Shown: piece by piece, positions 42,741 through 51,690 of the stretch | How the letters are laid out: every line of letters begins with the position of its first letter | Position numbering within the stretch: the first letter of the stretch is position 1 | Source of the DNA: Candidatus Poribacteria bacterium | Lineage (GTDB): Bacteria; Poribacteria; WGA-4E; WGA-3G | Direction of reading: 5' to 3' | Assembly (NCBI GenBank): GCA_965242965.1 | Contig: OZ251518.1 | Coordinates: 2,016,001-2,080,000 of the forward strand | DNA: 64,000 bases | The notes under the pieces: generated by a model | The model's database searches: none | What the model was told of the DNA's origin: nothing | Seen by the model: only the letters and a program-made list of their open reading frames with translations | Program-made: the position numbers and the translations under genes

Positions 42741-43046
42741 TCATCGTGCAATAATTACGGCGTAACGGAGCGGCGTTTCGCCCACATTCCGAATCCCGTG
42801 CAAGACGCGGCAATCGACGTGAATAGCCTGATTATCGGTGAGCCGGTGCGTCTGTTCGCCGAAAAGCACTTCGCCTTCTCCAGAGAAGACGTAGAAAATC
42901 TCCTGTCCGTCGTGCTGATGCGGCGGATGCGCCCGCGTGCCAGGGTCCACCTCAGAGATGTGGAGATGCAGTTGTTCCGGGTCTGCCCCCTTTTGAAAGA
43001 TAAACCGATCAATGCCTTTGACATCGGTTCTGACTGTTTCAGTCAT
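42741..43046 (-). CDS. Cupin domain protein
   Basis: PG...HPPHQH..QEIFYVFSGEG...HGIRNVG; GGAGG RBS. Confidence 0.88.
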   Translation of the reverse strand: MTETVRTDVKGIDRFIFQKGADPEQLHLHISEVDPGTRAHPPHQHDGQEIFYVFSGEGEVLFGEQTHRLTDNQAIHVDCRVLHGIRNVGETPLRYAVIIAR

Positions 43047-43109
43047 AAGAAATCCCTCCCTAGTTTTTTTGCTTAATTTAGCAGGTATTTGGGAATTTGT
43101 CAATTCGTT

Positions 43110-43625
43110 TCTCGATGCCTTCCCGGTAGGAGAGCCCTCGGGTCTCGATGTTCCCGTAGCGCGGGGGACAGGCCCCCGCGAGGCTCAAGAACCGTTTTTT
43201 TCACCGCAGCGCGGGGGCCTGTCCCCCGCGAGGGCTCAAGAACCGTTTTTTTTAGCGTAGCGCGGGGGCCTGTCCCCCGCGAGCTCTCTCGTGCACCAGG
43301 GCACGGCGAGGGACAGGCCCTCGCCCTACGGTGACAGGACGGCGTTTTTTTCACCGCAGCGCGGGGGCCTGTCCCCCGCGAGGGCTCAAGAACCGTTTTT
43401 TTTAGCGTAGCGCGGGGGCCTGTCCCCCGCGATCTCCATCGTCACGATGTGTATTTCTCCCACTGTAGTTTGTGATCGCCTGATCACAAACAGGTCAGGA
43501 TCAGGCGATCCTGACCTACAGAGGTGGGCCCAATGCGCTCCGGTAGGAGGGACATCCCTGTCCCGATATGAAACACATCGAGACCAGGAGGTCTCTCCTA
43601 CGGGGAAAACGCTTGCAGCGAGACC
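43110..43625. repeat. Mosaic REP-like array (left direct repeat of the DUF499/DUF1156 cassette)
   Basis: Same unit order and linkers as 49838-50274. Confidence 0.9.
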
Positions 43626-43645
43626 GGGAAGGCTCTCCTACGGGG

Positions 43646-46138
43646 CTACACCTCCTCAACCACAATCCCCAACGCGCGCAGACTCTCCAACAACTCTTCG
43701 TAAGCCTCCTGCGAGATTTGACCGGATGAGGCCCGCAACTCTAACTGCACACTCGTTCCTAACGCGTTGAGAGACTGCGCGACATTGCTCATCTTTCCCT
43801 GAGGCAACGTAAAACGGATGCCGATAGGTGGACTTGGAACTGGCGTTGGAGTCGGCTTTGGCACTGGCGCGGGTTCCGGCACAGGCCTTACATCTGGTTC
43901 AACGAGCTGCCCTGTGCAAAGCGAAGGTTGAATAATTACCTCGTTATCGCCAAGCGTGACTTCTGCAGCTTCTTGCATGAAAGCGCGCGTGAGGAACTCA
44001 CCTCCCACTCTCTCACCGATGCCAAATTGCCCCTGCGCCACGCCTTGGCGGATACCCGTTATCCACGCCTCGCGAAGCACGCGCTGCTCACCCGGTGTGC
44101 GGAGACTGGAGGAATGGAGCTGCGCCGTTGATACCGTATCGTTATCCTTCAGATAACGGTGGGCGATGTTCTTCGGCCCGATGCTGGTCAAGATTTCCCC
44201 CTTCATACAGAGCATCTCGTAAACTTTCTCATCCAGCCGTGTGTTCATCCCAATCGCGGGGAGCCCGAGGTCTTCCTCACGAAAGCCGTCTCGTGTCGGA
44301 ATTAAGAGGGTGCGATAATCTTGGCACACCGCATCGGTGAGCGCGCTCGCAGCTTGCCGCAATTGCGTCTTTACCTCCTTTTGTTGCTCATCGGATAAAT
44401 TCAGGGAGTTATCGTCCCTAATTGCCTCATAAGCGAGGACGCGCTTCACTTCAGTCTGCAGCTTCCCCGCGCTTCCGGCAAAAGGCACGAGGAAAAAGAG
44501 CGTGTTGCGATAGGTGCGCGGGGTTTCGCCGCGCATCTCCAGCAGGTTTCTGCAGAACGCATCGTCCCGTTGCGACAGCACAATGAGTTTCAGGTCTGGG
44601 GTATCCGCGATGTCCATTCCATTTCGCGGAGAAATGAACGTCTTCATCTTGGCACCGGGTTTAGTGGAGAAACTCCGTTTAATCTGTGCCTCGGCACGCG
44701 ATGCGACTTCGGCATCGTCCAGATTTTCCATCCGAATCTGCAAAATCCGCGTTAAGTTGGGTTGCGTGTCAAAATAAGCCTTCCCATTTTCGGTGCGCAG
44801 ATAAGAGAGATGCGCTCCCAACTGCGCCATCGCCGAATCGATGACAGAGGCAGTATCGGGAAGACGCGCCGCACTCCGCTTCACCTGTTCCAAACTCGCG
44901 CCGCGCTTCTGTCCACCCGTGAAAGAGTAGAGAAAGACTGCTGTCGCCGCCCGCGTGCCCAGTCGCAAATGCCTTAACGTATCACCCAGTGCTTCATCCG
45001 CCACCTTCGCGCCTGCATCCGCCGCGGTAATGTCGTTTGAGATGATGCTGCTAAACACGTTGCCAGCGTGCCTTAAGAGCTCCCCGCGGATGTCGGCATC
45101 GCGCAAGTCAAAATCGGCGAGGGAGATGTAGGGCAGATGTTTGCCGCGGCACCGATGCACGACTCGCGAGAGGAGCCGCAGCACGCCGCGCGTCCGCTGA
45201 AAATTCGGGAAACTCCCCCACCGATGATACAACACATCGATGACCTCGGGTTGAAACGGATAACTTGCGATAAACCGTTCGCGATATTCGGATTTTTGCT
45301 GGCCGGGCGGCAGTATGGATTCGCTGTCGGCATAATTCGCGAAGTCGCGGGCAATCCGCTTCGCGACACCGAGGTCAACTTCGGAGAACAATCGGCTACG
45401 AATGATGTTGGCAATTTCGGAGTCGTCCACCGGCGTTCCAACGCGCGCCATTCTATCCAGCAGCTTTTTAAACTCATTCGACAAGGCTGTCGCGCCGTAA
45501 TCCTCGTTCGCACCCGATTGCCGCGTCGCTATCAAGGCGACGTTGTTGCAGGAACGCACCGCCTCCATCAAGTTATGAACAAACCGCAGTGCCTGTTTTG
45601 CCAACGTGCTTCTGCCAATGTCAACCGCCTCGGCTGCCGCGAGATAATTCAGCACCTCGTCCATTAAAATCACGACAGGTTTTCCAACGCCGGTGAGGCG
45701 TTCGGCAATCTTCTCACTCCCCGGTGCCCGATGCCCGTGAAAGTGTTGCATCTCGCCGATTAACTGCGTTTCCAATGCGCCCCAGAGCGTCTGCTCGGCT
45801 TCCATGCCGGTGCCGACGAGGACTACCGGCTTCGCTTTCCACTCGTTCGCTTTGTGGAACAGCGTGATGAGCGTGTGGGTTTTCCCACCACCGAACGGGG
45901 TTTGCAACTGAATGACAGCATCGCCGCCGCGGCCTTTCACTCGGCGTTCTACCCCATGGAGCAGCTGCTTCAACCCCCCGGTCATGTAAGTTTTCTGGAA
46001 AAACCGCTTGGCGTGTCGGTATTCAACGGGTCCTTCGTCTTTTGCCACGTCGCCGAGGTTTGCGGCGTAGGTATCCAAAGTGAAATTGCCGCGTAAAATA
46101 TCGTTGTGCGGCATGGCGATTGTCTCAAATCCTGCCAT
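43646..46138 (-). CDS. DUF499-family AAA+ ATPase
   Basis: PH.DI..G, FF.KTYMT, QLQTPFGGGKTH, ILMDE, YPFQP, FQRTRGVLRLL; AGGAG before ATG 46138. Confidence 0.9.
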   Translation of the reverse strand: MAGFETIAMPHNDILRGNFTLDTYAANLGDVAKDEGPVEYRHAKRFFQKTYMTGGLKQLLHGVERRVKGRGGDAVIQLQTPFGGGKTHTLITLFHKANEWKAKPVVLVGTGMEAEQTLWGALETQLIGEMQHFHGHRAPGSEKIAERLTGVGKPVVILMDEVLNYLAAAEAVDIGRSTLAKQALRFVHNLMEAVRSCNNVALIATRQSGANEDYGATALSNEFKKLLDRMARVGTPVDDSEIANIIRSRLFSEVDLGVAKRIARDFANYADSESILPPGQQKSEYRERFIASYPFQPEVIDVLYHRWGSFPNFQRTRGVLRLLSRVVHRCRGKHLPYISLADFDLRDADIRGELLRHAGNVFSSIISNDITAADAGAKVADEALGDTLRHLRLGTRAATAVFLYSFTGGQKRGASLEQVKRSAARLPDTASVIDSAMAQLGAHLSYLRTENGKAYFDTQPNLTRILQIRMENLDDAEVASRAEAQIKRSFSTKPGAKMKTFISPRNGMDIADTPDLKLIVLSQRDDAFCRNLLEMRGETPRTYRNTLFFLVPFAGSAGKLQTEVKRVLAYEAIRDDNSLNLSDEQQKEVKTQLRQAASALTDAVCQDYRTLLIPTRDGFREEDLGLPAIGMNTRLDEKVYEMLCMKGEILTSIGPKNIAHRYLKDNDTVSTAQLHSSSLRTPGEQRVLREAWITGIRQGVAQGQFGIGERVGGEFLTRAFMQEAAEVTLGDNEVIIQPSLCTGQLVEPDVRPVPEPAPVPKPTPTPVPSPPIGIRFTLPQGKMSNVAQSLNALGTSVQLELRASSGQISQEAYEELLESLRALGIVVEEV

Positions 46139-46185
46139 GGGCGTGTTCTCCTTATAGATTTTCATATGCTAGCGTTCCTGCAATA

Positions 46186-47079
46186 CCGTAGGAGAGACCT
46201 CCCGGTCTCGATTTCCCGGTAGGAGAGACCTCCTGGTCTCGATTTTTCCCGTAGCGCGGGGGCCTGTCCCCCGCGAGCGTTAGATTGCGCCGACGATGGC
46301 GAGGGACAGGCCCTCGCCCTACGATGACAGGGACCGTTTTTTACCGTAGCGCGGGGGCCTGTCCCCCGCGAGCACCGATGAAGGGGGTGACGTTTTTTTT
46401 CGTAGCGCGGGGGCCTGTCCTCCGCGAGCGTTAGATTGCGCCGACGATGGCGAGGGACAGGCCCTCGCCCTACGATGAGGGACAGGCGTTTTTTTCACCG
46501 TAGCGCGGGGGCCTGTCCCCCGCGATCTCGGATGAAGGGAGTGGCGTTTTTTTCCCGTAGCGCGGGGGCCTGTCCCCCGCGAGCGCACCCGCGAAAAACA
46601 TCTCTTCAGGTCCTTTAGGTCCTGCATGTCTATAGTATCCCGCCGACAGAGAAGAGCCCTAAGGTCCTTTAGGTCCTTAATAGGCACCGGACACATCGCA
46701 GCAGAAAAGATTAAGGTCCTACGGACCTTGAGGACTTGGCGGGCTCCGCGTGCTATAGACATTAAGGTCCTACGGACCTAAGAGGCGTTTTTTATCGTAG
46801 CGCGCGTTGGATTGCGCCGACGATGGCGAGGGACAGGCCCTCGCCCTACGGTAACGAGGAAACAGCCTTGCAAACCGTAGCGCGGGGGCCTGTCCCCCGC
46901 GATCACACGCGTACCCGAAAGCACGGCGAGGGACAGGCCCTCGCCCTACGGTGACGAGGGGCTTTCTGCCGCCCTATTGCATCGAGACCGGGAGGTCTCT
47001 CCTACCGGCAATTCCCCGTTTTTTCAACGGCGCGCGGGAGCCTGGCACCGCGACGTTGAACCATTTATGAAACCCCCTC
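46186..47079. repeat. Large mosaic REP-like array separating DUF1156 and DUF499
   Basis: Many inverted REP pairs; ends in TATGAAACCCCCTC overlapping the DUF1156 stop codon. Confidence 0.92.
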
Positions 47080-49734
47080 GTTAATCCCCTCCACGATTTC
47101 CGCGACCTCCCGCTGAATAGCACCCCGGCCCGCGCACCAACCCTCCAGCCACAAACGCTCCCGGCTATCCGTCGGTAAAGCATCACTAATTTCTTTCGCA
47201 ACGTTCCAGATGAGTTCATTCAAACCGATTCGCCCGCGCGCGAGCCGCTGAATCATCGCATCACGTTCACCAGAACTCCACAGAAGCAAAGCGTGATGCA
47301 ACACATCAATCAACTCCTCGCTATTGGATAAAGTGGAGACATCCCTGTCTTGCGGGCCGAGGACGCGGATAAACGTTTTCTCCCTGCGGATGAAACTCCC
47401 GGCACCCCACTCCACCGCGAGTTCAAGCCCAAGGGATTGCGCGAGTTTGTTCGCGTCATTGAAGGGGACAGGCTTCTCGCCGTTTTCGCGCCGCCACCGG
47501 AGGTAGAACCGCGTCAGGTGACTCCCGGCTGCACCCGCCTGTTCGCCATCAAAACGTTCCAATATCGCCCGGATATCCTCAATCATCTGCCCGGCACGAA
47601 TAGGCTCGTCATCGTGATCAAGCACCTCTCGGTATTTGCCAAACACCTCAATGCCGCCGCCGATAGCCGCTATGAACAAGTCTGCCCCGGAAAAACCCCA
47701 CTCCCACAAGGTGAACAACTTCTCTTTGAGGTGAACCTCTAGTTCTTGGAGAACTTCCCGATAAGTCCCCCACTCTTCGCGCTCCGTTTTCCGGGCAACC
47801 ATGTAGATGGAAGAGGCGAGGGCTGCAGAATTGTAACTCCGCCAACGCACCTTCTTCTCCGTATCAATCGGCCACGCGGCGGTAACTACAAGACCCGAGT
47901 CAAGCAAGGCGTTTATCATTGCCTCCCATCCCTCGGTTGACTTGTGGGCATAGACAATGACAGCAATCCCGTTCGGTTTCAGCACCCGATGCATCTCCGA
48001 GAACGCTTTCGTCAGTCCTGTTTCAAAAAAGCGTTTTCCTGCCTCCCATCCGCCTTTTCGGTGCCCATACGCGACGATTTCCTCATCTTTCGGCGTGAGA
48101 GATTTCTCAAACAGTTCTGGATAGAGGTATCCCACGCTTCGCTTGAGCCAGACGTAGAAGAGATCGGAGAGGTAAGCGTAGGGAACGTTATCGTAATAGG
48201 GCGGATCCGTTAACACCGCGTCGAAAGTGTTATCGGGATAGGGAAGAGCTGTCGCTGAGGCTTGTTGCACGGTAGCCGGGGGGACATCCATTTGCGACAG
48301 ATGCTCCATCGGTTTTGAAACGGTTTTCACGCGATTCGCTGCCACGTGAAACGGATTCGCTTCCCCGTAATCCCAAACCATGGGCATGGTTTGCATCCCA
48401 AAGAGTTTGACAACAGACTCATTGCTATTACCCCACGGGCAGAGACTTGAACCTTTGTCGGCTATCCGGTCCAGCCACAATCCCAAGTAGGTTGTGACAG
48501 CACGCGCATAGTCCGCGGCGCAGTCCTCTTGGGTAAGCATCGCCGAGTGTGCATCCCTGATCTTATCAGTAAAGGTAATCAACGCGAGTTGCTGGCGCGC
48601 ATTGAAGAGCTCACCATACGTATTGAAATTGTAATTGTGAATGGCAATAGCTCTTTCTGCGCCGGGACCTTTTATTTTTGGCGTTGGCTCATCTGGCACT
48701 GGGGCGAATCCCCATTTTTCCTTGAGCAACGCCTGTTTTTCAAGGAGACGGCTTTGTGCCTCTCTGAAAACTGCCTCATCCTCATCCGTGGCCAGGCGAT
48801 ACCGTTTGCCTGTCACGTTTGGACGGTGAGTGACGACAGCAACCATTTTTTCGCCTGCCATCCCTTCCTGAAACAGGCGGCGCGTGTCTTTCGCCGGGAT
48901 AGTGTTTTTACAGAGAGGACAGGTAACAACGGCTTTCGTGACCGATCCGGCGGCGGGTTTGAAGTCGTCCGGGGTGGGTTCATATCCGGGCCCTACGATG
49001 CGGAAGGCAAGCGCGCCATCTGCATCGTAGGGATAGAGCGCGATGTCTTTATTCCCTGCGAGCCAAAATTGGCCCATCAGGGGAATAGTAGCCGAGCATC
49101 CCAGATTCTGGCACGGTAACGTGCGCGCCCAGATGTAGGCGAAAACGTTAGCACCGTCGGCTTCCTTTAGATAGAACGGTGCCAATTCTGGTTCCGCTTG
49201 TTCGATGACCCGGGTTGCCCATTTTTGGAAATCGTCGTGGAGGCGTTGGCCGTATTTTTGCGGGTATTCAAGCGTGCATTTCTGAATAAGCACGGAGACA
49301 GGATTGAGATCGCAGGAGTGGGTTTCGCAACCGAGGCGGAGTGCTTCCAACGGAATCGCGCCGCGTCCACCGAACGGGTCGAGCACCTTGGGTGGTTTCC
49401 CATCGTGGGATTCCAAGATGTCGCGGCGGGCTTGCTCAATCCAGAGTGGTTTGAGCGCGTTTTCCCACTTGGCGAGTTCAGCGATGAAAACTTGCTTGTG
49501 CGTCGGTTCTAGCGGATTGTCAGAAACCCTACTTGTTTGTGAAGTGAAGGGGGGGGGGGTTATGAGTGCGGCATAAGCCGTGGCACGCGAGGGTCCGAGA
49601 GGTCGGCTTGCCCACCAGATGTGGAGTCCGGTTATCTGCTGCCTATTTTTGTCTTTGCGTCCCTGTTCGCTGACTTCTTCAACAGGGAAAGCGATTTCGA
49701 TGATGCGTTTGTCGTTGCTCACGCGAGTCTCCAT
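47065..49734 (-). CDS. DUF1156-family adenine-specific DNA methyltransferase
   Basis: LHIWWASRP, DPFGGRGAIPLEALRLG, DLNPV, TDPPYYDNVPY, WPIDTE, ALASS. Confidence 0.92.
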   Translation of the reverse strand: METRVSNDKRIIEIAFPVEEVSEQGRKDKNRQQITGLHIWWASRPLGPSRATAYAALITPPPFTSQTSRVSDNPLEPTHKQVFIAELAKWENALKPLWIEQARRDILESHDGKPPKVLDPFGGRGAIPLEALRLGCETHSCDLNPVSVLIQKCTLEYPQKYGQRLHDDFQKWATRVIEQAEPELAPFYLKEADGANVFAYIWARTLPCQNLGCSATIPLMGQFWLAGNKDIALYPYDADGALAFRIVGPGYEPTPDDFKPAAGSVTKAVVTCPLCKNTIPAKDTRRLFQEGMAGEKMVAVVTHRPNVTGKRYRLATDEDEAVFREAQSRLLEKQALLKEKWGFAPVPDEPTPKIKGPGAERAIAIHNYNFNTYGELFNARQQLALITFTDKIRDAHSAMLTQEDCAADYARAVTTYLGLWLDRIADKGSSLCPWGNSNESVVKLFGMQTMPMVWDYGEANPFHVAANRVKTVSKPMEHLSQMDVPPATVQQASATALPYPDNTFDAVLTDPPYYDNVPYAYLSDLFYVWLKRSVGYLYPELFEKSLTPKDEEIVAYGHRKGGWEAGKRFFETGLTKAFSEMHRVLKPNGIAVIVYAHKSTEGWEAMINALLDSGLVVTAAWPIDTEKKVRWRSYNSAALASSIYMVARKTEREEWGTYREVLQELEVHLKEKLFTLWEWGFSGADLFIAAIGGGIEVFGKYREVLDHDDEPIRAGQMIEDIRAILERFDGEQAGAAGSHLTRFYLRWRRENGEKPVPFNDANKLAQSLGLELAVEWGAGSFIRREKTFIRVLGPQDRDVSTLSNSEELIDVLHHALLLWSSGERDAMIQRLARGRIGLNELIWNVAKEISDALPTDSRERLWLEGWCAGRGAIQREVAEIVEGINEGVS
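49549..49559 (-). repeat. C11 homopolymer tract in the coding strand of the DUF1156 methyltransferase
   Basis: G11 on the + strand, encoding T-P-P-P near codon 60. Confidence 0.85.
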
Positions 49735-49751
49735 TGGAAAATTTGTTAATT

Positions 49752-49781
49752 ACGATACCACAAAATCGGTTAAATTGTCAA
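49752..49781 (-). promoter_or_regulatory. Sigma70-type promoter for the DUF1156 gene
   Basis: TTGACA-18-TATCGT, preceded by TGTGG. Confidence 0.6.
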
Positions 49782-49814
49782 ATGTATCAGGTCTGATGCA
49801 AATGTCATCATTCC

Positions 49815-50327
49815 TCCCCGTAGGAGAGACCTCCTGGTCTCGATGCCTTCCCTGTAGGAGAGACCTCCTGGTCTCGATTTGCCCGTAGCGCGGGGGTCTG
49901 TCCCCCGCGATGGCTCAAGAACCGTTTTTTTTATCGTAGGGCGGGGGTCTGTCCCCCGCGATCTCTCTCGTGCACCAGGGCACGGCGAGGGACAGGCCCT
50001 CGCCCTACGGTGAGGGGGCATTTTTTTACCGTAGCGCGGGGGTCTGTCCCCCGCGATGGCTCAAGAACCGTTTTTTTTCGTAGCGCGGGGGCCTGTCCCC
50101 CGCGATCGCCATTGTCATGATGTGTGTTTCCTCCTCTGTAGTTCGGGAGCACCCGCTCCCGAACGGATCAGGATCTGGCGATCCTGACCTACAGAGGTGG
50201 GCCCAATGCCTTCCGGTAGGAGGGACATCCCTGTCCCGATATGAAACACATCGAGACCAGGAGGTCTCTCCTACCGGGGAAATGGAAGCGTTATCATTTT
50301 TACAACAACGAGATATGAAACAACCTC
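49815..50327. repeat. Mosaic REP-like array (right direct repeat) ending in TATGAAACAACCTC
   Basis: Colinear with 43110-43601. Confidence 0.9.
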
Positions 50328-50332
50328 TTTTA

Positions 50333-50362
50333 ATTATACAACATTTTTGGAATTTTTGTCAA
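50333..50362 (-). promoter_or_regulatory. Consensus sigma70 promoter firing into the REP array
   Basis: TTGACA-18-TATAAT; array end motif begins 6 nt after the -10. Confidence 0.75.
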
Positions 50363-50541
50363 GGGTCTATTTTTCAATAGCGAATCGAGAGAAGAAAACA
50401 GACAACTACGGAAATCTGTCCCGACAAAATTGCAGGTTGACTAAAAACCCATAATTTGCTATAAATAGGATACCATATCACCTTTCAAGCACCTCACGGT
50501 GCTTTATCGGCATAGATACTTTTCGACCTAAGGGGGTTTTC

Positions 50542-51189
50542 ATGAATACAAAGAATCTCGTCGCTGAATTTATCGGCACGTTCGCGCTCATCTTTATCGG
50601 CGCGGGCGCGCTGGCGATAGCTCAAGCAAATTTAGTGGGCATCGCACTCGCCCACGGACTCGTCATCGTCACGTTCGCTTATGCGTACGGGCATATTTCT
50701 GGCACGCACATTAACCCGGCCGTGACGCTAGGACTCCTCATCGCGGGAGAAATCCGAATCGCCGCCGCCGTCGGGTATTGGGTTGTGCAGTTTCTTGGCG
50801 GAATTTTGGGAGCAGTAGTGCTTAATGCGGTGCTACCAGAAGCCGGTGACCTTGGGGTAACTATTTTAACGGAAGGTGTGACATCAACGCAAGGGCTCAT
50901 CGTGGAGATTGTGCTCACTTTCTTCCTCGTCAACACGATTTTCAATACGGCGGTGAGCGGCAAGGCGGGGAATTTCGCAGGGCTCGCGATTGGGCTGACG
51001 CTGGTGCTGTGCATCCTCATGGGCGGACCGCTGACACGCGCGTCTCTTAATCCTGCACGGACGTTGGGGCCTGCCATCGTCAGCGGGAATTATGCGGATA
51101 TTTGGCTCTATTTTGTCGGGCCGGCGATTGGGGCTGTGCTGGCCGCGCTGCTCTATATCGGTGTCTTGAAGGACAAAGATTCGGCCTGA
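50542..51189 (+). CDS. Aquaporin (MIP family)
   Basis: AEFIGTF, ISGTHINPAVT, SLNPARTLGPA. Confidence 0.95.
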   Translation: MNTKNLVAEFIGTFALIFIGAGALAIAQANLVGIALAHGLVIVTFAYAYGHISGTHINPAVTLGLLIAGEIRIAAAVGYWVVQFLGGILGAVVLNAVLPEAGDLGVTILTEGVTSTQGLIVEIVLTFFLVNTIFNTAVSGKAGNFAGLAIGLTLVLCILMGGPLTRASLNPARTLGPAIVSGNYADIWLYFVGPAIGAVLAALLYIGVLKDKDSA

Positions 51190-51690
51190 TTGCCGGTCTC
51201 TTCCGGTAGGAGGGACATCCCTGTCCCGATTGCAGGTAGGAGGGACATCCCTGTCCCGATACGCAACCGGTAGGAGGGACATCCCTGTCCCGATTGCGGT
51301 AGGAGGGACATCCTTGTCCCGATTGCAGGTAGGAGGGACATCCTTGTCCCGATACGAAAAATCGAGACCAGGAGGGCTCTCCTACTGGCACCCCTCTGTA
51401 GTTCGGGAGCGCCTGCTCCCGAACGGTTCAGGAGCAGGCGCTCCTGAACTACAGGCGTGAGGAGCATCCCACATCGAGACCAGGAGGTCTCTCCTACGGG
51501 GGAGGCATCGAGACCGGGAGGGCTCTCCTACTGGCACCCCTCCGTAGTTCGGGAGCGCCCGCTCCCGAACGGTTCAGGAGCAGGCGCTCCTGAACTACAG
51601 GCGTGAGGAGCATCCCACATCGAGACCAGGAGGTCTCTCCTACCGGGCTGATGCCTTCGCGGTAGGAGGAACATCCCTGTCCCGATACTG
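51190..51690. repeat. REP-like array with tandem GTAGGAGGGACATCC(C/T)TGTCCCGAT units
   Basis: Five head-to-tail copies at about 51205-51352, then a roughly 145-bp block duplicated. Confidence 0.9.

Follow-up and report, generated by a model that had tools for sequence, protein, structure and literature searches.

A predicted helicase-less HmaB-HmaC pair between two sister REP arrays in a Candidatus Poribacteria genome, with repeats that probably arrived after the genes

Hma systems were renamed in a 2026 survey as DUF499-centred, bacteriophage exclusion (BREX)-related systems (BR systems), and the part of the survey available to us describes a tripartite core formed by an ATPase, a DUF1156-headed N6 methylase, and a helicase or helicase-nuclease; its main text, as far as available, does not mention Poribacteria (PMC12839542). 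According to the accessible portion of another report, protection against phages has been shown only for the helicase-nuclease HmaA, of Halomonas (PMC11232893). Regarding repeats, a 5' GTAG followed by a GC-rich hairpin is given in the available portions of two sources as the hallmark of those repetitive extragenic palindromic (REP) elements associated with REP-associated tyrosine transposases (RAYTs) (PMC2817692, PMC3184786). The nearest precedent, in a partly available source, for a cassette placed between direct non-coding elements is a Tn402-like integron of Acinetobacter lying between two 439-bp direct-repeat copies similar to miniature inverted-repeat transposable elements (MITEs), for which excision by homologous recombination was proposed; integron mobilisation units belong to the same group of known systems (PMC3184786). 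In this work, we analysed a 64,000-nt stretch (hereafter the window) of a Candidatus Poribacteria genome (GCA_965242965.1, OZ251518.1, positions 2,016,001-2,080,000; labelled G000:C1), in which a methylase gene (HmaB) and an ATPase gene (HmaC), together referred to as the cassette, lie between two composite REP arrays. Candidatus Poribacteria are sponge symbionts, and the genome containing the window (G000) comprises 5.7 Mb in two contigs. A narrow literature search combining Poribacteria, restriction-modification and repeats retrieved only general sponge-symbiont genomics, and we make no claim that the repeats are undescribed. By comparing the arrays with each other, with the remainder of G000 and with related genomes, we obtained results which indicate, at a probability that we place near 0.6, that the cassette was resident first and that the arrays are later colonists, not the vehicle of its acquisition.

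Every unit of these arrays consists of a 5' GTAG and a GC-rich hairpin; the four scanned hairpin types are called A, B, C and D, a lower-case letter marking an inverted unit. When searched by blastn against the whole genome, the left and right flanking arrays (Table 1) were reciprocal best matches (406 bp, 90.1% identity, 541 bits), the next-best matches reaching 341 bits for the left array and 306 bits for the right one. Given one 51-bp unit indel, they constitute colinear direct repeats from 43110/49838 to approximately 43610/50283, which measure 446-501 bp and have exact runs of 63, 51, 33 and 29 bp in common. The unit order and distinctive linkers described as shared in the initial annotation were corroborated: the 21-nt linker CTCTCTCGTGCACCAGGGCAC is confined to two copies in 5.7 Mb, one in each flanking array, and the linker GGCTCAAGAACCGTTTTT has 36 genome copies, five of them at cassette arrays. 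Its colinear 98-bp match between 43504-43601 and 50177-50274 was likewise reproduced, with two mismatches that occupy the adjacent positions 43537 and 43538. Divergence between the arrays is distributed as a mosaic: at offset 6673 there are 25 mismatches, of which 18 are located inside one doublet hairpin (43435-43503), a place where the two copies hold different common hairpin modules. Outside this module, the flanking arrays would be approximately 95% identical. Both are bounded by inverted C units, at 43120-43139 and 43588-43607 in the left array, and at 49850-49881 and 50247-50278 in the right one (32 nt at 94% identity). Instead of a GTAG end, the left copy has at its start the final 15 nt of a C unit situated upstream, its outer left end being truncated and degenerate. 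The structure of the arrays and the specificity of the pair are read directly from these alignments.

The position of the cassette was examined in related genomes, of which G001 is the closest relative, with higher identity than G002 in four of five flanking proteins, and G002 belongs to the same genus as G000. Cupin and aquaporin genes, which flank the cassette in the window, are neighbours separated by 134-659 bp in five of the six relatives having both within the fetched 20-kb stretch (G002, G004, G005, G012 and G016), as well as in eight of ten further Poribacteria records, which may partly duplicate the former genomes; in the three exceptions (G009, L052 and L053), a WD40-repeat gene or fragment lies between them. 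Because both genes are adjacent without the cassette in relatives, the cassette corresponds to an insertion at a variable site. A search for relatives joining cupin to aquaporin through a single array had been suggested in the initial annotation; cassette-free alleles do exist, but none of them carries such an array. The 659-bp spacer of G002 has no A-D unit and contains a 62-codon remnant of a DUF1156 N-domain (L021:10422-10640), which is 83% identical to the HmaB of another G000 locus (L046) and 35% identical to that of the window. Since this remnant represents a different HmaB subtype, two Hma subtypes have occupied the same spacer within one genus. A search of metagenome contigs of the Joint Genome Institute (JGI) with the cupin protein as query found no close relative (best match, 84%).

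The relative that bears on the age of the arrays is G001, whose assembly is fragmented (210 contigs, 86% complete), its unit count being a lower bound. Its HmaC is directly beside cupin, with 83% amino acid identity over the last 501 residues, and the 265-bp spacer between both genes aligns with G000 only at one two-hairpin doublet, similar to REP doublets forming hairpins (REPINs), and at the cupin promoter. The orthologous stretch contains no A-D unit in G001 versus 15 in G000; thus, the arrays look younger than the insertion, as G001 has the cassette junction without these units. Along the stretch from the SBP5 to the LamG gene, five units are found in G002, in a D/c array behind aquaporin that is common to G000, versus 53 in G000. 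Both the insertion, relative to these genomes, and the absence of the arrays from them are direct observations. The D/c-type array downstream of aquaporin (51206-51686; G002 L021:11647-11890) is common to G000, G002 and probably G001, and, being shared among relatives, it seems to be older than the A/b-type arrays of the cassette. Two candidates derived from G001 were discarded: contig C195, considered as the orthologue of the HmaB in the window, carries the orthologue of a second HmaB-HmaC pair (L043); and a left-array hairpin resembling that of G001, considered as a chimeric proof of gene conversion, is a common module with 246 exact copies and is not diagnostic.

The similarity of the flanking pair was then placed among all arrays of at least 250 bp (543), ranked against each other by megablast. 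With 527 bits, it is at the 99th percentile (median best match, 257 bits; 99th percentile, 529 bits), and its ratio of best to second-best score, 1.7-1.9, is among the highest of the 543. As high or higher scores were obtained by three other pairs, one local (566 bits) and two distant, with members megabases apart (532 and 531 bits). The similarity therefore far exceeds modular chance, yet it is not unique to the cassette. Equally similar arrays elsewhere, together with the lack of an empty allele, had been named in the initial annotation as arguing against a recombination role; such pairs do occur, whereas empty alleles exist as well, though array-free. The best match was within 15 kb for 23 of the 543 arrays, when approximately 3 (0.5%) would be expected by chance from the array density. 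Direct orientation was found for each of these 23, while both orientations occur among distant pairs scoring 300 bits or more (62 direct, 69 inverted). This difference indicates that arrays of G000 are habitually copied to nearby places without a change of orientation.

The genes enclosed by other local pairs are varied and encode a PD40 propeller protein, a giant fn3/cadherin protein, an LTD protein, a sigma factor, a PIN protein, GlnA with an Eco57I-like methylase, RecD2 with an N6_N4 methylase, and a Type ISP restriction enzyme; one further pair surrounds a sulfatase-maturase/peroxidase/tyrosinase group, and another (L034) is inside a tandem gene family. Overall, about a dozen places have genes bracketed by arrays, three of them being restriction/defence-type loci. 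The array-bracketed Eco57I-like methylase (L037) and Type ISP enzyme (L042) of G000 are absent from G002, whose empty sites for them (144 and 252 bp) contain no A, B, C or D units by reading. As a separate observation, the DNA of the L042 Type ISP gene has many partial matches (66-81% identity) at a dozen or more places each in G001 and G002, which points to single-chain restriction enzymes forming a very large paralogous family in the genus, as judged from these matches. An orientation of arrays linked to replication was considered and rejected: the cumulative GC skew has no two-armed pattern, and no division of the chromosome into two arcs accounts for which distant pairs are direct and which are inverted (57% consistency, with a null mean of 58%).

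According to the history that we favour, the HmaB-HmaC pair would have entered the short divergent-promoter spacer between cupin and aquaporin in the common ancestor of the G000 species and its closest relative, G001. Later, and only in the G000 lineage, GTAG-headed REP hairpins would have undergone a massive expansion, in which composite arrays with inverted C-type hairpins at their ends came to occupy all three non-coding gaps in the cassette. The flanking arrays would be sister copies of one C...c-bounded element, either because one array was copied across the cassette in the same orientation or because both were homogenised by gene conversion, and one hairpin module would have been exchanged afterwards. 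We infer this order of events and the copying mechanism from the comparisons described above. If the repeats merely colonised the locus, it provides a well-documented example of REP expansion reshaping the non-coding DNA around recently acquired genes, and of flanking direct repeats that can mimic the footprint of a mobile element. The insertion site, variable and located between two conserved genes, has hosted two Hma subtypes and a WD40 gene.

Several points weigh against this history. The left copy starts inside a C unit, which the clean transposition of an element fails to explain, and copying by recombination or template switching, or else a later truncation, is favoured for this reason. 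The G001 assembly covers the 3' 60% of HmaC together with its junction to cupin; HmaB is unassembled, as is the junction on the side of aquaporin, and an array loss in G001 could have taken place instead of a gain in G000. All compared genomes are from other species, so excision may still occur at present. Finally, a series of integrations by way of homologous arrays would likewise leave all 23 local arrays in direct orientation.

Irrespective of how they originated, the arrays may be active sites of deletion or amplification today, with populations that are polymorphic for alleles in which a hybrid array joins cupin to aquaporin; we regard this as unlikely, albeit worth considering. As judged from their sequences, the flanking arrays are specifically related direct repeats and a plausible substrate for homologous deletion, since their exact shared runs, several within 406 bp at 90% identity, reach 63 bp, and they would make it possible for the 6.2-kb cassette to be deleted by homologous recombination. 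Clusters of REPs, or bacterial interspersed mosaic elements (BIMEs), have been linked to recombination in E. coli, as stated in the available part of PMC3184786. The public-run data available here are Logan contigs of four runs, with lengths of a few hundred bases, which end at every array and none of which bridges one; their depths sum over organisms and cannot rank the parts of one stretch. Of 744 joints, the 15 that were listed are repeat cross-joins, a skip of about 6,673 bp occurring in none of these 15, and the cassette and its flanks have similar contig depths in three of the four runs, with the limitation just mentioned. In run X5, depths are approximately 210-330 on cupin/aquaporin contigs versus 4-56 on HmaB/HmaC contigs, which, as sums over organisms, are taken as a lead. 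The edges from cupin to array and from array to HmaC were confirmed in independent studies (run X10, records 9 and 10; runs X1 and X5, records 1 and 18). A broader proposal, which we consider quite doubtful, is that sister REP elements laid directly around accessory genes would render defence genes excisable, lost or amplified by homologous recombination independently of a transposase, with polymorphic populations and helicase-less, phase-variable pairs that share a single HmaA in trans.

A gain of the cassette by means of the arrays, as put forward in the initial annotation, is decidedly improbable. It would involve either a circle carrying HmaB-HmaC and one array, integrated in a Campbell-type manner into a resident array, or arrays acting as the ends of a composite mobile unit. 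The location of the cassette between direct repeats of 446-501 bp that are mutual best matches is in line with delivery, as are the direct orientation of all 23 local best-match arrays, the absence from G002 of the two other array-flanked defence genes, and the record of a MITE-flanked integron with a proposed homologous excision in the accessible portion of PMC3184786. Conversely, an array is present at none of the empty sites of relatives (as scanned in G002, and with short spacers in the remaining cassette-free ones), and the cassette junction of G001 is free of these arrays. Moreover, target duplications were looked for and not found around both arrays and the whole unit, no second copy of the array-HmaC-HmaB-array unit was found in the genome by blastn, the left array ends outwards in a truncated and degenerate C unit, and the paralogous L043 pair is not bracketed by sister arrays. 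As for a chance outcome of modular arrays built from few units, it is scarcely credible, despite the extreme abundance of the units (about 7,460 genome-wide) and the three other pairs with scores as high or higher, given the 21-nt linker unique to both arrays, the colinearity of unit order, spacers and D-c tail, the high score ratio, and the roughly 0.5% of arrays estimated to have their best match so close.

The A-D types amount to 7,462 matches in 2,075 clusters, or 6.4% of the G000 genome, in a scan tolerating up to 3 mismatches in which some A/B cross-matches are counted twice. The 27-nt unit A has 2,328 matches in G000 (0 for the reversed control), 361 in G001 and 313 in G002, and 1, 0 and 0 in three genomes of other genera; hence, among the sampled genomes it is limited to one genus and is about seven times more common in G000 than in G001 or G002. 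The orientation of array ends was assessed in 750 arrays with at least 4 units. Hairpin type C (GTAGGAGAGACCTCCTGGTCTCGAT) is forward at left ends and inverted (c) at right ends: 78 of the 750 arrays are of the C...c form and none is of the c...C form, and all three arrays of the cassette follow the C-left/c-right rule. The middle one, of about 900 bp, has its best blastn matches elsewhere in the genome and not in the flanking arrays. In the one distant sister pair whose boundaries were inspected, homology begins exactly at GTAGGAGA and stops exactly at CTCTCCTAC. No target-site duplication was found at the right, left or middle arrays, the whole unit, or the one end-resolved distant sister pair. 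A classification as MITEs derived from a DDE transposase was rejected, as inverted ends were found but the target duplication was not. In view of these features, the behaviour of the arrays is that of composite REP elements, which end in hairpins and are copied in units of 300-500 bp, and not that of classical MITEs with target duplications.

These repeats resemble the GTAG-headed REPs, BIMEs and REPINs that accompany RAYTs, as described in the available portions of the literature (PMC2817692, PMC8266576, PMC3686654, PMC3184786), in being short intergenic hairpins present in thousands of copies and forming mosaic arrays of alternating orientation. Likewise, a Y1 (HUH) transposase gene is present in G000. 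They differ from known REPs and BIMEs in that their arrays are C...c-bounded and can be copied as units of 300-500 bp and in their very high density within the genome. PF01797 (Y1/HUH transposase) matches two places in G000, one of them broken by 2 TGA codons; the other gene has an intact Y1 domain and, unlike in known REP/RAYT systems, this RAYT-like gene is flanked by two-hairpin doublets and not by A-D units. At L048:1417-2523 (G000:C1, approximately 3,147,500-3,148,600), a 368-aa frame of a RAYT-like gene reads through translated hairpin repeats upstream of a Y1 domain of about 150 aa; its true start is probably an internal Met, and a two-hairpin doublet is located just downstream. With respect to the MITE-flanked integron (PMC3184786, available in part), both cassettes lie between direct copies of a non-coding element of about 450 bp with inverted ends, and homologous excision is conceivable; the poribacterial locus differs by its copies, of 90% and not 100% identity, by the truncation at its outer left end, by the existence of a relative (G001) whose cassette junction is free of the elements, and in that a target duplication was looked for and not found.

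Table 1. Coordinates of the cassette, its arrays and adjacent features within the window
Feature	Position	Strand	Details
Cupin gene, left flank	42741..43103	-	Pfam Cupin_2 5.5e-17
Promoter-like site of cupin	43103-43075	-	TTGACA-17-TAAATT
Left composite REP array	43110..43610	+	C-unit tail, C', A, A, A, b, A, A, two-hairpin REPIN-like doublet (43460-43527), D, c
Extra degenerate c unit	43614..43644	+	Abuts the HmaC stop codon, outside the duplicated block
HmaC, DUF499 AAA+ ATPase, 839 aa	43646..46165	-	PADLOC HmaC 1.5e-108; Pfam DUF499 2.3e-32
Middle REP array, splitting HmaB-HmaC	46166..47064 (example span 46188-47008)	+	C C A b A A b A A ... b A b c and AAGGTCC-type hairpins
HmaB, DUF1156 N6-adenine-type DNA methyltransferase, 889 aa	47065..49734	-	PADLOC HmaB 1.2e-119; Pfam DUF1156 1e-10
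C11 homopolymer, HmaB codons 59-62	49549..49559	-	Sequence read
HmaB-proximal promoter-like site, between right array and gene	49781-49752	-	TTGACA-18-TATCGT with TG, 10/12 matches
Right composite REP array	49817..50283	+	C, C, A, A, b, A, A, two-hairpin doublet (50130-50200), D, c
Consensus sigma-70-type promoter, pointing through right array to HmaB	50362-50333	-	TTGACA-18-TATAAT, 12/12 matches
Aquaporin (MIP) gene, right flank	50542..51189	+	Pfam MIP 2.2e-57

The genes of the cassette look intact, as the methylase motifs of HmaB (DPFGGRG and DPPY) and the Walker A (FGGGKTH) and Walker B (VVILMDEV) motifs of HmaC are present in the read translations. Their scores are below the cut-offs of the NCBIfam models: 169 bits for HmaC with DUF499_antiphage (cut-off, 1200 bits) and 166 bits for HmaB with the anti-phage-associated DUF1156 equivalog (cut-off, 1000 bits). 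The true start of HmaB may be the GTG at 49722, preceded by GGAG; the alignment with its homologues begins at residue 5. No solved structure matched HmaB or HmaC by sequence. Between the flanking arrays, the initial annotation had placed only the methylase with its promoter, a third array and the ATPase. The content stands, as the interval holds only HmaC, the middle array, HmaB and an 85-bp promoter-like spacer; the sole promoter of HmaB with 12/12 matches, however, is outside the right array, and the site inside is a weak one. A transcript from the outer promoter would cross the right array by reason of this position. This promoter is in AT-rich DNA specific to G000 (50284-50430), which is not alignable with G001 or G002.

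As in Hma/BR systems, the cassette combines a DUF1156-headed N6-type methylase with a DUF499 AAA+ ATPase; unlike their tripartite core, it is without HmaA, has a 900-bp REP array between the two genes of the pair, and contains a C11 tract in HmaB. The helicase/nuclease HmaA was not found in the cassette, and no further open reading frame of at least 150 aa is present between cupin and aquaporin. On its domain content, the cassette is a helicase-less Hma pair, or DUF499-centred BREX-related pair, and, because the helicase is absent, it was not classed as a complete Hma system; it would constitute, at most, the modification/sensor half of one. Five HmaB-HmaC pairs are present in G000 (the window, L043, L044, L045 and L046), in two gene orders (B-C and C-B), and among these loci HmaA is found only at L044 (PADLOC 7.1e-191). 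A single genome thus holds five copies of HmaB-HmaC, which is of relevance for helicase-less methylase-ATPase pairs; that the pair of the window borrows HmaA in trans is speculation. At L044 and L046, too, REP arrays are located inside the HmaB-HmaC pair; in the paralogous pair at L043, HmaB and HmaC are only 8 bp apart.

Phase-variable DNA methyltransferases (phasevarions) have a length-variable homopolymer tract early in the methylase frame. The tract of HmaB is similar to these, being early in the frame and differing in length among relatives and natural contigs; HmaB is unlike them in belonging to a BREX-related pair, and its ON/OFF switching and any regulatory effect are putative. At the same position, tracts of C8-C23 are found in seven of nine G005 copies and in L004, L005 and L008 (homologues of G005, G004, G009 and G015), and the HmaB of many relatives loses frame at the tract, at residues 62-72, although errors of long-read homopolymer assembly may explain some of these frame breaks. 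Contigs from natural-sample runs include forms that are 3 and 4 nt shorter at 49549. These data suggest that the tract is a candidate phase-variation (contingency) switch of a BREX-related methylase, and the conserved, length-variable poly-C makes such phase-variable modification testable by methylome data from sponge metagenomes. In G005, HmaB constitutes a multi-copy family of solitary methylases without visible mobile-element ends: nine dispersed paralogues (L129-L137) have 87-91% DNA identity to the reference copy (L129), with similarity extending only from the ribosome-binding site to the stop codon, and only one is accompanied by HmaC, the neighbours being all different.

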